Origin: a virus
Strand: one strand, 5' to 3'
Length of the DNA: 64,000 nt
IMG/VR virus record: IMGVR_UViG_3300003154_000789
Span: 61,331 to 125,330 of that record
Shown here: piece after piece, positions 59,466 through 64,000 of the stretch
How positions within the stretch are numbered: position 1 is the first letter of the stretch
Layout: each line of letters starts with the position of its first letter
Program-made: the position numbers and the translations under genes
The notes under the pieces: model-generated
Databases searched by the model: none
The model's input: the letters and a program-made list of their open reading frames with translations, nothing else
Told to the model about the DNA's origin: nothing

Positions 59466-59601
59466 AGACTCTAGTGGTAGTTCCTAATGCGAAGCCATCA
59501 ACATTGCATACCAATGGGTGTTTACACTCTAGAAGAATCGTTCCTGGTTTTTGTACAGACCATTTACAATCGTCGCAGAAACAAGGATATGGTTTTTCCA
59601 T
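59332..59601 (-). CDS. small Cys-rich protein, paralog of 59638..59856
   Basis: MEKPYPCFCDDCKWS...C..P...SC..ER...CG.RG.LWE. Confidence 0.65.
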   Translation of the reverse strand: MEKPYPCFCDDCKWSVQKPGTILLECKHPLVCNVDGFALGTTTRVYEGVSCDIERSKRWFGECGRRGRLWEQKEENVKKCKEEDQSSDR

Positions 59602-59637
59602 AGTATTTTCCTTTGTTTATGATGTGATAAATTCATT

Positions 59638-59856
59638 TTATTTTGTTTCCCAAAGCTTTCCTCTCATTCCACATAGACCAAGAAATATCTTTTCTCTTTC
59701 ATCCTTACAACTGATTCCGGGGGTTATACTTGATAGTGAATCAGAATCTGCAGCGTTCAGAGTCGGTTGCTGGCATGAAAGACTTTTGCTGCGTGCGTTG
59801 GAAATTTCTTTAGACCATTTACAATCTTTGCAGTAGAGCGGATATGGTTTTTCCAT
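59638..59856 (-). CDS. small Cys-rich protein, paralog of 59332..59601
   Basis: MEKPYPLYCKDCKWS...C..P...SC..ER...CG.RG.LWE. Confidence 0.65.
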   Translation of the reverse strand: MEKPYPLYCKDCKWSKEISNARSKSLSCQQPTLNAADSDSLSSITPGISCKDEREKIFLGLCGMRGKLWETK

Positions 59857-59874
59857 GTTTTTATTTCTCCTGTT

Positions 59875-61454
59875 TTAATCTTCCGAATCGCCCGCTTTTA
59901 AGTTCATTATTGGTTTGACTCGATGAAGGATCTTTGCCGTTGGTGAAATAGCTGCCTCAATGATCTCAGCTGGCTTGTACGCCCCTTTAAGTTCATCGGT
60001 TGGCAATACACTTGTGTAGATACCCTTGGCTGCCATAGAGGCTCTGGCTTCCTCTAAGTTCAACTTTTCCTTGGCAATAGTTCTTGAATACAGACGACCC
60101 GCACCATGAGGAGCAGAAAAGTTCCACTCGGAGTTTCCCTTACCCTCACAGACCAGAATACCATCTTCCATATTGAAGGGAAGGATAAATTTTTCTCCGG
60201 CGTAAGCAGAGACAGCACCTTTGCGGATGATGAAATCTTTGTAATTGATACAGTTATGAACTGTAGTTATCCTTTCGAAGATGTGATCCTCTCGTACACG
60301 CAGTTCTTCAAGGATAGCCTTCATCATAACTTGATGACTCATGTACGCATACCAATTAGCGAAGATAGTATCAATGAGGTACCCATACATGTGCTCACCG
60401 TGTAGAGGTTCAAGACCCTTAGGTGTCTTTGGTACCATATCACGGACACCTTGAAACATTTCCTGCCACTTTTCCTTGGGCTGTTTCTCTTTGATTAAAT
60501 CAAACATCTCGGTCATTGCAACGGACTTCTTGTTTTTCAGGTCTTTTACTGCAATGTCTTGCCAGTATGTGGCGATACGCAGACCTAGATTACGAGAGCC
60601 GGAATGGGTGGTTATACAAGGATAGCTTCTCTCGTCTATGCCGATTTCAATGAAATGATTCAGTTGTTTGTTACTACTATTCGATTCGAATAGCGGATAG
60701 GTCATTTCTGCCTATCTCTCCGGCTTCATTTTATTATCCCGGAGGTCGGACTGTCGCTTATCTTTCGATCTTCTTCACTCAGTCTCTCACGGCACATGCA
60801 TGCATGTTTCCGCCCTGTCGTCCATTTTTATAGGACTTCCAAGTCAATCAGAAGAAGTTTCGGTATTAAACACAAACACTTTGGACCCGGAGGCAATCAT
60901 TTACCACCACCCAAGGTGCCGATAGAATTGATAACATACTGAGCGAAGTCCTTCTTCTTCTTTCTGATGGATACCCTTTCACAGAGTGAAAGAAACCAAT
61001 CAAGATCGATTTTTGGACAACGGTGCTTGCTGCCATATCGTTTGTTGAACGCCAACGTAAACTCGACAGCTTCTTTCTGTACTGTTGCCCAGGGAAAATC
61101 GTTCTTCATGTCGAGCTGTGGTTTGGGATGTACTTCTCCACCCATTGGTATCCTGGCACGTATTCTCTGGTCAAGTTTGTCAAAATCAATACCGCTTAAG
61201 ACGATTGGATCCAATCGCACCATATGCATTTGGCAATAAAGATCAACGCCAACAACATTTGGAATTACATTATCCCCCATAGGCATAGTAAAACCGATGA
61301 CAGCACCTTTGCCAGCATGAGTATCAGGCATGATTTTGATAGGATTGATAAATGAATAGTTGTTTATAAACGCATAAATCTGGCTGGTTGTTGTCTCATC
61401 TATATTATCAATCATTACATCTGCTGTTGTGTACTTTCCTTTGAAGGTGAGCAT
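59875..61454 (-). CDS. rtcB: RtcB 3'-phosphate RNA ligase, two exons (61454-60903 and 60660-59875; 445 aa spliced)
   Basis: MPDTHAGKG, VGVDLYC, GTLGGG|NHFIE, THSGSR, HN, RKGA, SAPHGAGR, DE...AYK. Confidence 0.93.
60661..60902 (-). ncRNA. group I self-splicing intron (242 nt, no ORF) in rtcB
   Basis: Exon ends in U, intron ends in G; P1 with U.G wobble; 6-bp P10 (AUGAUU/AAUCAU); P3 CUUCUUC/GAAGAAG; P7 GACUG/CAGUC; P8 and P9 hairpins; removal restores the frame and GGGNH. Confidence 0.92.
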
Positions 61455-61606
61455 TTACATATTCTCCTATGTTGTAGAGCTTCTGTTATAAGCATCCTTA
61501 CCATATTTGACAGTGGTCTTTGGTCTTTTTCTGAAAGAGTATACAACTCTTGGAACATTTCATCGGTTACACGTGTTGAAATTCCTTTTGAAAAATCTTG
61601 TTTCAT
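61415..61606 (-). CDS. ribbon-helix-helix-like DNA-binding protein
   Basis: ISTRVTDEMFQELYTLSEKDQRPLSNMVRMLITEAL. Confidence 0.6.
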   Translation of the reverse strand: MKQDFSKGISTRVTDEMFQELYTLSEKDQRPLSNMVRMLITEALQHRRICKCSPSKESTQQQM

Positions 61607-61609
61607 GAA

Positions 61610-61876
61610 CTACTTCTCCTTGAATCTTTGTTCATCATTTAATTTATGCTTTATCTTACGCGAATATTCCTTGGGGCTTTTATGCACGTTTCCAGGTCTA
61701 GGAATAGGAATTCTTCCGAGCCTTGGCTTCCTGGTTTTCGCTTTTACAGATGACAGTAATACTGCCCTACTTAAACATACTTCACAACCAATCCATGGAT
61801 GGACAAATTCTTCCTTGTTAAAAGCATGTTTAGTTATATGATTGCACGCTGAGCACTTATATTTATAGATAGCCAT
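61610..61876 (-). CDS. FmdB-like Zn-ribbon protein
   Basis: MAIYKYKCSAC...CEVC. Confidence 0.65.
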   Translation of the reverse strand: MAIYKYKCSACNHITKHAFNKEEFVHPWIGCEVCLSRAVLLSSVKAKTRKPRLGRIPIPRPGNVHKSPKEYSRKIKHKLNDEQRFKEK

Positions 61877-61930
61877 TTTATCTCCAACTTGTGCCCGGCC
61901 ATATTTCAGACCGGGCTGTCTATCTTTTTG

Positions 61931-62923
61931 TTATTCGGTAATGATTGCAAGCTGCCCGCAGGCCGCTCCGGCTTCCACTTCAGCCTTGGTGGCAATGGCG
62001 ACTGCATAATCGAATCCGGAATTGTCAAGCTGTTTCTTAATGGTCTCTTCTACATTGTTTTCCATATCTTTTCTCCTTATTATACTGCCGTTAAAGTTGG
62101 TTCTCAAATTTTGTCCGTCAAATACCAGATTGCTTTTTGAATCAGTGGTGGGTTTACATCTAAATCTGGTATACAACTTGACTACCTTTTTTCCCCTTTT
62201 AGGAAGGAATAAATAGTTAGCACACCGACAAATGTCGTCATTGCTCCACACTTTGTTTTTGACAAGCCTTTCGTTGAATAGCTTGTCGTCTGGAAACTCA
62301 ACAAAATGTTTCAGGCAAAAATCGTTTGTGGGCATCAGAGAAACGAAACCAACATCATGTATGCCTACAGCACTAGCCCACTCCAGATAATTGGTAATAG
62401 ACTTGTAGTCATGGACTTTCCCTTTTATCATGGTGCACGACAAATGCATTTTATCATTAGCCATAGACCACAAATAGTTAGCCATAGGTACAAGTTTAGT
62501 TCCAAATATCTTCTGATTTTCAATGTCATTGAAATGGTGTCTGGATATGGCTATATTATCCAAATCTTTTATTGCAGCTATTTCTAGCAAACCGTAACCA
62601 TTTGTGTTGACAACTGTAAATGTGTCTTTATTAAATGATTTCACAATTTGCACACATTCTCTTACCAAACCTGGGGCAAATGATGGCTCGCCGACGGTAA
62701 AAGATACTTTAGTAACTGTTACGTGTTTACTCAATAAGGATAAAACTTTTTCAAACTTTTTGATATCGAATTGAAAACCATTATTCTTATTGGCAAAAGT
62801 GCAGAAAGGGCATTTTGCTTGACAAATATCAGTTACTTTTACGTATAGAGATGTATATGGACCATCTACTGGTTGTGGTGCATTTCCATTTAGGGCACAA
62901 TAAACATCACGAAATAGTTCCAT
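61931..62923 (-). CDS. radical SAM protein; the last 44 aa are an RlmN-like C-terminal peptide with its own RBS/ATG (61931..62065)
   Basis: CQAKCPFC (CxxxCxxC); tail MENNVEE...GAACGQL preceded by AAGGAG. Confidence 0.8.
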   Translation of the reverse strand: MELFRDVYCALNGNAPQPVDGPYTSLYVKVTDICQAKCPFCTFANKNNGFQFDIKKFEKVLSLLSKHVTVTKVSFTVGEPSFAPGLVRECVQIVKSFNKDTFTVVNTNGYGLLEIAAIKDLDNIAISRHHFNDIENQKIFGTKLVPMANYLWSMANDKMHLSCTMIKGKVHDYKSITNYLEWASAVGIHDVGFVSLMPTNDFCLKHFVEFPDDKLFNERLVKNKVWSNDDICRCANYLFLPKRGKKVVKLYTRFRCKPTTDSKSNLVFDGQNLRTNFNGSIIRRKDMENNVEETIKKQLDNSGFDYAVAIATKAEVEAGAACGQLAIITE

Positions 62924-62944
62924 ATTATTGTTCCTTTCAGAATA

Positions 62945-63250
62945 TCAACAAGGATTTCCTCTATATCCTCCACCATGACCACATGGATCCGGCGTGCTTT
63001 CTTTTGGAGGTTTCGGCATTTTACTTACCTTTGTCTTTACTAACCTGCGTCCAGCACACGTATCTTCCAGAATTTCAGCAACTGTCTTTACTCGACCCGA
63101 AAAAGGTTTCATCACTTCTTCATAAGCCAGCTCAGTGATTAAACCTTCTTTACGCATATCGTTGATAGCGTCCTTATAATCGGTAACGCTTCTAAATCTT
63201 CTCTGAAGAAGTTTAAGAAATGTTACCTCTTTTGCTATTTTTGGCTGCAT
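62945..63250 (-). CDS. hypothetical protein
   Basis: ORF with RBS GGAGG. Confidence 0.6.
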   Translation of the reverse strand: MQPKIAKEVTFLKLLQRRFRSVTDYKDAINDMRKEGLITELAYEEVMKPFSGRVKTVAEILEDTCAGRRLVKTKVSKMPKPPKESTPDPCGHGGGYRGNPC

Positions 63251-63260
63251 TTATTACCTC

Positions 63261-64000
63261 CTATGCAATGTTGGCTTGGTGTATTATACCTTCGCCAAGA
63301 TCATTTGATTTTGATACGACATTCTCATTGATTGGGCTGATTTTGATGAAAAACTTATCTTTGTCAAACAATGCGGATAGTTTCTCCATTGAAAAATCTT
63401 CAGCCCTTGCCATAGTCAAATTCAGAGTAGTCTTGAGGCGGCTAGCCGTTCTGATCTTGCCCATCTCCTCAAGAGTAATTTTGTGTTTGTATGGGATAAG
63501 CCAATTGCGATAGTTCTCATCAAATGAATGGACACTGAACTGGAGTGTCATATTTGGTCTGATCCAGGAGTAGTCAGCCCCTTGGATGCCAATAGTTGAG
63601 ATGTAATGGTGGATACTTGGATTGTAATGATACAATATGTTGATGGCTTCTTTGACATTTTTAAAATTAAGAAATGGTTCTCCCATCCTGGTATAGTTTA
63701 TCTTGAATTCTTTTGCCCCATCTACCCAGGTACCAATATTCTTATCCATAACAAATTGAACTTGTTGCACGATTTCATCGACTGTAAGATTCCGGAAACG
63801 TTTCATATTTCCTGTAGCACAGAACTTGCATCCTACAGGACAACCGGACATTACAGAAACTCCGACCATCCATCGTTCCAAGCGGGATCCAAGATCACCA
63901 CTTTTGAGGACGTTCTGTTTTGGGCCAATAGCATCCTTTGTATAATAGGGCAAAAAGGTGTCGGTAACTTCGATTGGATAACCATCTTCAGTATGTAATA
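63261..64000 (-). CDS. RlmN/Cfr-like radical SAM protein lacking the C-terminal AACGQL (5' end off the window)
   Basis: Frame open to the edge (..LHTEDGYPIEVTDTFLPYY..); VSVMSGCPVGCKFCATG, RNLTVDEIVQQV, MGEPFLN, QFSVHS. Confidence 0.8.
   Translation of the reverse strand, partial: LHTEDGYPIEVTDTFLPYYTKDAIGPKQNVLKSGDLGSRLERWMVGVSVMSGCPVGCKFCATGNMKRFRNLTVDEIVQQVQFVMDKNIGTWVDGAKEFKINYTRMGEPFLNFKNVKEAINILYHYNPSIHHYISTIGIQGADYSWIRPNMTLQFSVHSFDENYRNWLIPYKHKITLEEMGKIRTASRLKTTLNLTMARAEDFSMEKLSALFDKDKFFIKISPINENVVSKSNDLGEGIIHQANIA

Follow-up and report, generated by a model that had tools for sequence, protein, structure and literature searches.

The two-cysteine ping-pong of the radical S-adenosylmethionine (SAM) methylases RlmN and Cfr, to our knowledge the only characterised members of class A, is a textbook mechanism. 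RlmN is the C2-methyltransferase of A2503 in 23S rRNA and A37 in tRNA (structures 3RFA, 5HR7 and 6FZ6), its N-terminal helical domain having an RNA-binding role, and Cfr is the C8-methyltransferase of A2503 in 23S rRNA (structure 9P0P). RlmN methylates its cysteine C355 and generates a radical at the new methyl group, which is then added to adenine, and a second, resolving cysteine (C118) is needed for release of the cross-link (PMC9692996). The resolving cysteine is reported to be indispensable for this release in both RlmN and Cfr, and the C118A substitution in RlmN traps a protein-tRNA adduct (PMC9692996). Here we analysed a stretch of 64,000 nt of DNA of a giant phage (positions 61,331 to 125,330 of IMG/VR record IMGVR_UViG_3300003154_000789; hereafter the window), which contains an RlmN/Cfr-like enzyme in two pieces: a truncated body that has no resolving cysteine, and a 44-codon Cys-loop peptide, encoded 1.2 kb downstream, that corresponds to the missing C-terminal segment.

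The open reading frame (ORF) lists placed the two pieces in a tight operon with the order body, 101-aa small protein, second radical-SAM enzyme (rSAM2) and Cys-loop peptide. All coordinates are those of the whole 64,000-nt stretch and all genes of the operon lie on the minus strand:

63261-64000, minus: RlmN/Cfr-like radical-SAM body, 262 aa, with its start 49 nt beyond the window end (L001:2550); from the ORF list, Pfam Radical_SAM, NCBIfam, PDB matches and hhalign
63261-63263, minus: stop codon of the body, the ORF ending ...HQANIA; from the sequence
63861-63863, minus: codon of Gly63, at the position of the RlmN resolving cysteine C118; from the sequence and hhalign
63819-63842, minus: CPVGCKFC, the CxxxCxxC motif (C70, C74, C77) with the 4Fe-4S cluster ligands; from the sequence and alignment
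62945-63250, minus: 101-aa small protein, helical in its N-terminal part and ending on Cys; from the ORF list and aligned homologues
62078-62923, minus: core of rSAM2, residues 1-282, with a predicted MoaA/BlsE/viperin/EpeE-like fold; from Pfam, NCBIfam, alignments, AlphaFold and Foldseek
61931-62923, minus: complete rSAM2-peptide fusion ORF, 330 aa; from the ORF list
62066-62077, minus: four-codon linker RRKD, overlapping AAGGAG; from junction DNA compared with loci L060 and L090
62073-62078, minus: ribosome-binding site AAGGAG, 7 nt before ATG 62065; from the sequence
61931-62065, minus: 44-codon Cys-loop peptide (helix, beta strand, AACGQL loop) and stop, with its ATG at 62065; from the sequence, family alignment and hhalign
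61958-61960, minus: codon of Cys36 of the peptide; from the sequence

A first-pass annotation of this DNA had described an RlmN-like ORF with CPVGCKFC and MGEP that stops at ...HQANIA without AACGQL, and this arrangement could be read directly on the minus strand. The body ends just after core strand beta6 (the LSPIN strand), without the C-terminal helix, strand and Cys loop. It matched Pfam PF04055 (Radical_SAM) with 39 bits against a cut-off of 29.5, and stayed far below the family thresholds of the NCBIfam models for RlmN (TIGR00048, 72 bits, cut-off 290, the match running from position 103 to 244 of 355) and Cfr (NF000424, 58 bits, cut-off 530; TIGR04432, 55 bits, cut-off 550). Its best PDB sequence match was Cfr 9P0P (E 2e-10), and RlmN 6FZ6, 5HR7 and 3RFA were also matched. 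Alignment of the body profile to unsplit two-cysteine relatives by hhalign covered columns 12-244 of 306 with a probability of 100%, and placed a Gly on the resolving Cys of these relatives, in agreement with the first-pass reading that this cysteine had been replaced by Gly. This residue, Gly63, lies seven residues ahead of the first cluster Cys. The body has three Cys in total, all of them cluster ligands, and only these three Cys are invariant in the family alignment. A protein search returned 2191 homologues of the body; all 119 close homologues that could be scored among the best 120 of these carry Gly in place of the resolving Cys and lack a cis Cys loop.

Compared with RlmN, the split family has in common the CxxxCxxC core, MGEP, S-x-H and the Glu of the I-E-x-V strand, and it shares the C-terminal helix, strand and G/A-A-C-G-Q-L Cys loop, which here reside on a separate peptide of ~40 aa. 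It differs by the Gly, by its score against the RlmN model, and by an absent N-terminal domain and an added insertion that are considered below. Cfr has the same class A core, with both Cys (the resolving one being C105) in one chain, and nothing in the split family hints at antibiotic resistance. In the C118A mutant of RlmN (5HR7; PMC9692996) the resolving Cys was lost by engineering, resulting in a dead end within one polypeptide, whereas the split family lacks it naturally and has the Cys segment as a small separate gene product. Unsplit homologues from Stenotrophomonas phage BUCTxx99 and Salmonella phage Arash (~34% identity, same core) carry the resolving Cys and a GGCGQL loop in one chain of 309-319 aa and belong to the canonical clade. 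The label 'prohibitin family protein', which unsplit homologues from Stenotrophomonas and Xanthomonas phages bear in their annotation, is probably an error, and a gene for an SPFH/Band 7 protein was seen two genes upstream of the body in distant carriers (L002, 1407-2624, 'tikkala'; L090, 2707-3564).

The segment missing from the body was found as the last 44 codons of the rSAM2 ORF. As the first-pass annotation had proposed, a reading of 44 codons starts at ATG 62065 behind AAGGAG, shares its frame with the 330-aa radical-SAM ORF and finishes with the AACGQL motif. The AACGQL motif was seen once in the six frames of the window, where 0.0008 occurrences were expected. In hhalign the peptide profile aligned to columns 258-295 of the unsplit RlmN-like proteins (helix, strand and GGCGQL) with a probability of 90% and an E of 1.6e-6; together with columns 12-244 covered by the body, the two pieces therefore sum to a single complete enzyme whose break lies between beta6 and the helix that follows. 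Searched alone against PDB sequences the peptide gave no match. The alignment of the peptide family contains 21 invariant columns across 14 diverse sequences, with a single invariant Cys, and besides this Cys no residue is invariant in the split family alone. Among relatives from viral contigs the peptide is conserved at ~65-74% identity, compared with 60-63% for the body.

The layout in two pieces recurs in ~160 locus hits from two overlapping searches. A check of homologous loci for a stand-alone peptide gene, which had been suggested for this DNA, revealed a free-standing gene of ~40 residues in many phages. It is annotated as a small ORF 3-20 nt after the body in Kehishuvirus 'tikkala' (Bacteroides), Moorella phage MTATph1 and Vibrio phage D479, and one 90-aa gene separates body and peptide in Yersinia phage P778 and Pectobacterium phage Arno18. 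When loci were collected through the body (83 loci), the peptide was adjacent in 40, behind a nest of one or two genes in 41, and affected by deletions in two. When they were collected through the peptide (79 loci), the body was upstream within the locus in 74; the remainder included one body 2.6 kb away and three loci at contig ends. Counted from the body stop, the frame of the peptide was 0, +1 or +2 in 10, 30 and 4 of 44 distinct adjacent junctions, with gaps from -18 to +58 nt, and this use of all three frames with variable gaps indicates that the peptide is initiated on its own and not by recoding. A frameshift or other recoding event that joins body and peptide was ruled out by these junctions and by nests of up to ~5 kb. 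No re-fusion of body and peptide was found in the 119 close homologues or in the ~160 locus hits. Separate, conserved and co-located genes jointly cover a single-chain homologue, as in a two-component enzyme, and at the level of sequence the two-piece layout was confirmed as real and conserved, and not a broken gene. In L024, L072 and L089, deletions of the peptide gene also truncate nested genes or the end of the body. Vibrio phage D479 (OZ195776; L004, 3309-3530) has two tandem peptide units, each GF...AACGQM, in one 74-aa ORF. This tandem peptide argues for more than a structural strand, and looks like a carrier or consumable.

Modelling of the body as a complex with the 44-mer, another check put forward in the first-pass annotation, predicted docking of the peptide on beta6. 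With alignments of our own as input, the interaction score ipSAE (interaction prediction score from aligned errors) was 0.72 as the median of three runs, compared with 0.11 for the best of three controls; of 80 solved complexes 58 attained that mark, as against 2 of 110 mismatched pairs. The runs shared at least 71% of contacts, and the predicted local distance difference test (pLDDT) of the partner was at least 64. Peptide residues 18-23 pair in the model with body residues 233-239 (beta6), Cys36 and Gly37 of the peptide lie at an interface that includes body residue 78, beside the third cluster Cys, and body residues 120-122 in the SAM-binding MGEP stretch, and the C-terminal AIIT of the peptide packs on the N-terminal sheet of the body. 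The peptide is thus predicted to dock where the C-terminal strand of RlmN itself sits, with its Cys near the SAM site and a geometry as for a restored RlmN fold. Residues 1-4 of the peptide are outside the predicted interface, so that an N-terminal fusion partner would be compatible with docking.

In a phylogenetic tree the canonical two-cysteine enzymes, including the unsplit Stenotrophomonas and Salmonella phage forms, form one clade (support 100/98), and those that lack the resolving Cys are all in the other (100/98). The latter consists of four groups: the split phage family; a cellular group that has Ile or Asn in place of the resolving Cys and retains a Cys loop, IGSNCGQ, in cis; two proteins in which Thr takes this place and AACGQ is likewise in cis; and a cellular group with Gly and without the loop in the protein or in nearby DNA (one locus examined). 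NCBIfam has no model of its own for any of the four groups, and this sister clade of RlmN/Cfr, cellular members included, is uncharacterised. The Ile/Asn proteins are ~300-325 aa long (P0220, P0205 and P0223; loci L096 and L097), P0220 being encoded beside an isochorismatase and a flavin adenine dinucleotide (FAD)-dependent oxidoreductase. The cellular Gly family, or 'RKIGVSL' subgroup, has ~260-285 aa (P0178 and 12 similar representatives) and in L095 lies between pyruvate kinase and greA; in the DNA surrounding this one locus no Cys-loop peptide was found, and Gly at -7 alone therefore does not predict a peptide in trans. Gly at -7 occurred without a cis loop in 25 of 25 representatives, which in the tree are essentially one clade. 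It follows from the tree that the resolving Cys was lost before the split arose, in what amounts to a single evolutionary event. The argument from co-evolution that the enzyme is split because its reaction is suicidal is weakened by this result, as sister families without the resolving Cys keep their loop in cis.

The in-frame fusion of the peptide to rSAM2 is limited to the lineage of the window. Homologues of rSAM2 end with their own stop at ...GF.G.II(Y), at about residue 282; in the window this stop is absent and RRKD replaces the stop and spacer seen in other phages. In L060, L099, L161, L184 and L176 the body, small protein and rSAM2 are followed a few nt later by a free peptide gene. 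The same 330-aa fusion, with AAGGAG-ATG kept, was found in L090, a separate assembly whose body is 87% identical. Between the window and L090 we counted 14 synonymous and 2 non-synonymous differences in the peptide, 83 and 86 in the rSAM2 core, and 99 and 36 in the body. By these counts the peptide tail is under strong purifying selection and the fusion is real and persistent. A sequencing error or pseudogene was ruled out as the origin of the fusion, because a diverged, independent assembly keeps the same open frame. From the comparison of loci, the peptide, elsewhere free, has become fused in this lineage only, within a four-gene operon that recurs, and the free peptide is probably also made from the retained AAGGAG-ATG. 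In the AlphaFold model of rSAM2 the core has a pLDDT of 80-95 and residues 300-330 have a pLDDT of 33, which indicates that the peptide tail is not part of the rSAM2 fold. In L176 (2071-2995; IMGVR_UViG_3300011008_000034) rSAM2 is broken into ORFs of 113 aa and 167 aa, with body and peptide intact.

Pfam recognised only Radical_SAM and Fer4_12 in rSAM2, and the Pfam scan found no SPASM domain or recognition element (RRE) of peptides that are made by the ribosome and modified after translation (RiPPs). Beyond CxxxCxxC, the cysteines C9, C163, C232 and C234 are invariant and would be suited to an auxiliary cluster. The top Foldseek matches were MoaA, BlsE, viperin, EpeE and SuiB (E 1e-9 to 1e-6, template modelling score ~0.45-0.6), and the fold matches include nucleotide-acting (MoaA, viperin, BlsE) and peptide-acting (EpeE, SuiB, SkfB) enzymes alike; identity to MoaA, BlsE, viperin and EpeE (YydG) is only 12-18%. 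The ORF for the 101-aa protein starts 10 nt past the body stop, behind GGAGG, and had no match in Pfam, NCBIfam or PHROG. Its homologues (12 aligned) precede rSAM2, adjacent to it in most loci, and have the C-terminus C-G-x-G-G-Y-x(4)-C, in which the last Cys is invariant and a second Cys ~10 residues earlier is nearly invariant. The pair shows the arrangement of RiPP maturases and their precursors, namely a radical-SAM gene beside a small ORF whose leader varies and whose C-terminal core is conserved, and the 101-aa protein looks like a RiPP-precursor-like partner of rSAM2, which here has in addition an RlmN-type tail.

Searches of viral contigs for rSAM2 needed an alignment as query, as a single-sequence pattern search found almost nothing. 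Both rSAM2 and the body are present in 11 records (the window and the contigs of L090, L060, L099, L102, L104, L109, L114, L116, L161 and L184), and in all 11, from genomes of 100-425 kb with differing gene orders, they lie within ~3.5 kb of each other. No second body was found elsewhere in whole-record searches of five of these contigs (L099, L102, L104, L109 and L116). The small protein and rSAM2 are nested between body and peptide in at least eight records. This nest and the fusion point, on balance, to a functional link between rSAM2 and the RlmN-like module. Another ten records have rSAM2 without any body, and the small protein and rSAM2 also stand as a pair in huge phages of up to 735 kb with no RlmN-like gene (L092-L094: LR756501, LR756502 and LR745206; L101-L115), where they look like an independent phage RiPP-like cassette. 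A second type of nest, in 40 of the 83 loci, all crAss-like, consists of a 255-aa radical-SAM protein and a fragment of a class I methyltransferase; the nested protein aligned to rSAM2 in the cluster region with an hhalign probability of 76%, indicating generic kinship only. The methyltransferase fragment is 148 aa long and lies between body and peptide (L009, 4780-5968, and 39 similar crAss-like loci), and a homologous methyltransferase is found in L102 (2394-2840) beside rSAM2 and two Cys-terminated small ORFs.

We favour, with moderate confidence and by analogy with RlmN, a two-component member of the sister clade of RlmN/Cfr methylases in which the peptide acts as the Cys carrier. The body would hold the 4Fe-4S/SAM site, and the peptide would contribute the helix, the following strand and the loop that bears the only essential Cys, docking onto beta6 so that this Cys is placed beside the SAM site, as modelled. 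If the chemistry follows that of RlmN, the peptide Cys would be methylated by one SAM, and a second SAM would make a radical on the S-methyl, which would add to an sp2 carbon of the substrate. This substrate would most likely be an adenine in RNA, a suggestion to which the RNA-repair genes of the genome (rtcB nearby) lend weak support. As neither body nor peptide contains a resolving Cys, the adduct would either be freed by a route that is invisible in the sequence or persist. A free and exchangeable peptide would be a replaceable Cys carrier; in the window this carrier, the last element of the four-gene operon, would be produced as a flexible tail at the C-terminus of rSAM2, and probably in free form too. 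The proposal in the first-pass annotation of a methyl-carrier Cys that acts in trans, on a free peptide or in a fusion, is supported by the stand-alone genes in homologous loci, the purifying selection and the predicted docking.

A different outcome would be that the reaction halts at the covalent stage and the peptide, methylene-bridged to a base of RNA or DNA, is used only once while the body turns over. The indispensable role of the resolving Cys in RlmN and Cfr, with the adduct trapped by C118A (PMC9692996), suits such a consumable peptide, as do the absence of any Cys beyond the three of the body and the one invariant Cys of the peptide, with no other residue specific to the split family, and the tandem units of D479, a pattern to be expected of a unit that is consumed or acts as a carrier; the body would, moreover, become reusable if the Cys segment had its own gene. 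We nevertheless consider this rather unlikely, because the whole sister clade is without the resolving Cys, including cellular cis-loop enzymes with Ile, Asn or Thr, one of which adjoins the isochorismatase and oxidoreductase genes. Single turnover is unlikely for all of these enzymes and another release route is probable; loss of the Cys and the split are not coupled, and in the window a 286-aa enzyme would be spent with the peptide unless the internal start is used. In an extended form of this idea, which we regard as unlikely, the split family would be a natural system for conjugating peptide to nucleic acid: for want of a resolving residue the single-use peptide would be left as a methylene-bridged tag on an adenine in RNA (or DNA) of the host or the phage, the body would turn over with fresh peptide, and companions such as rSAM2 would process the adduct. 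It is doubtful, although a serious possibility, that the two pieces are simply a stable heterodimer, an ordinary methyltransferase with some other mode of release in which split and fusion are functionally meaningless. Gene fission is common in phages, cis-loop relatives without the resolving Cys exist, and the predicted docking recreates the RlmN fold; a meaningless split would, however, have been kept across phages of Bacteroidota, Firmicutes and Proteobacteria with zero re-fusions, would not account for a peptide that is better conserved than the body, and leaves unexplained the D479 tandem units and the repeated nesting of other enzymes.

That nesting, seen in 40 of 83 loci for the 255-aa radical-SAM protein and methyltransferase fragment, and in the records noted above for rSAM2 with its small protein, can also be read to mean that the peptide is itself a product or shuttle, its Cys being modified by the body, rSAM2, the nested radical-SAM protein and the methyltransferase, or a group being carried by it from one enzyme to another. 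The fusion to rSAM2 would then be a 'Rosetta stone' hint of interaction, and the D479 tandem units would fit, but about half of the loci hold body and peptide only, the peptide is homologous to an integral RlmN segment and not to a known precursor peptide, and rSAM2 has its own conserved small partner and ten records without the RlmN-like module, so that we judge this role improbable. Very improbable, to the point of being negligible, is an RlmN-like gene that was cut by a two-gene cassette and left with a decaying tail. The cassette of small protein and rSAM2 does stand alone in huge phages without an RlmN-like gene, and some loci have peptide deletions; however, the peptide is separate even where nothing is inserted, its tail in the window and L090 differs mainly at synonymous positions, and its invariant columns and predicted docking are not those of a remnant.

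Several observations weigh against the two-component carrier that we favour, or limit what can be drawn from it. The ~60-residue N-terminal helical domain of RlmN is missing from the body, which has 62 residues ahead of the resolving position compared with 117 in E. coli RlmN, and hhalign revealed a family-specific insertion of ~20 residues before the cluster strand; the choice of an RNA target is therefore only a matter of analogy and genome context. The N-terminal domain of RlmN is drawn in Figure 2A of PMC9692996. The peptide has been lost in L024, L072 and L089, and the body ORF is intact in L024 and L089. The score of the complex may come partly from the model's memory of intact RlmN structures, alignments of our own having been used. 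The first-pass annotation had taken the loss of the resolving Cys to suggest a stable cross-link or a modified peptide, and this step is weakened by the tree: a stable cross-link would be only one possible chemistry, and since cis-loop enzymes manage without the resolving Cys an alternative release route is at least as likely as a dead-end adduct. That the module is linked to rSAM2 could come from a common location in islands of accessory genes and not from a common function, and the internal start at ATG 62065 is deduced from a ribosome-binding site kept in two genomes only.

In this widespread branch of phage enzymes, with thousands of database proteins, one cysteine of the pair has been dropped and the other moved to a tiny separate gene product. 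Either outcome, a new way of releasing the adduct or a deliberate covalent peptide adduct, would alter the view of this enzyme class. The carrier role also offers a testable function for small phage ORFs, several of them annotated only as hypothetical, and the module is linked to a second radical-SAM system with its own Cys-terminated small protein. Neither the split nor the rSAM2 cassette turned up in the literature that was searched on phage RlmN-like enzymes, crAss phages and phage radical-SAM RiPPs; this analysis contributes the nest and the fusion, a census that started from the peptide, docking checked against controls, and a tree in which the split is separated from the loss of the Cys.

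Other features in and around the operon were as follows. A consensus scan gave one weak promoter candidate directly upstream of the peptide ribosome-binding site:

62079-62107, minus: sigma-70-like promoter match (TTGAGA, 17 nt, TATAAT; 11/12); from the consensus scan, weak

The scan found 10 sigma-70-like sites compared with 8.3 expected in shuffles, and the -10 hexamer of this match is not kept in L090. An Rfam scan of 59500-64000 gave no match, and a terminator scan around the operon gave nothing convincing. Directly after the operon lies an 88-aa ORF (61610-61876, minus) with a weak zinc-ribbon match to PF09723, below threshold. Two genes downstream, in the window as in L090, is rtcB, which in the window is present as two ORFs on the minus strand: an N part (60897-61454) ending ...GTLGGG and a C part (59875-60705) resuming with NHFIE. 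The spacer of ~240 nt between the two parts is structured (fold z = -2.7), with no Rfam match, and the same 185-aa N part of rtcB is present in L090.

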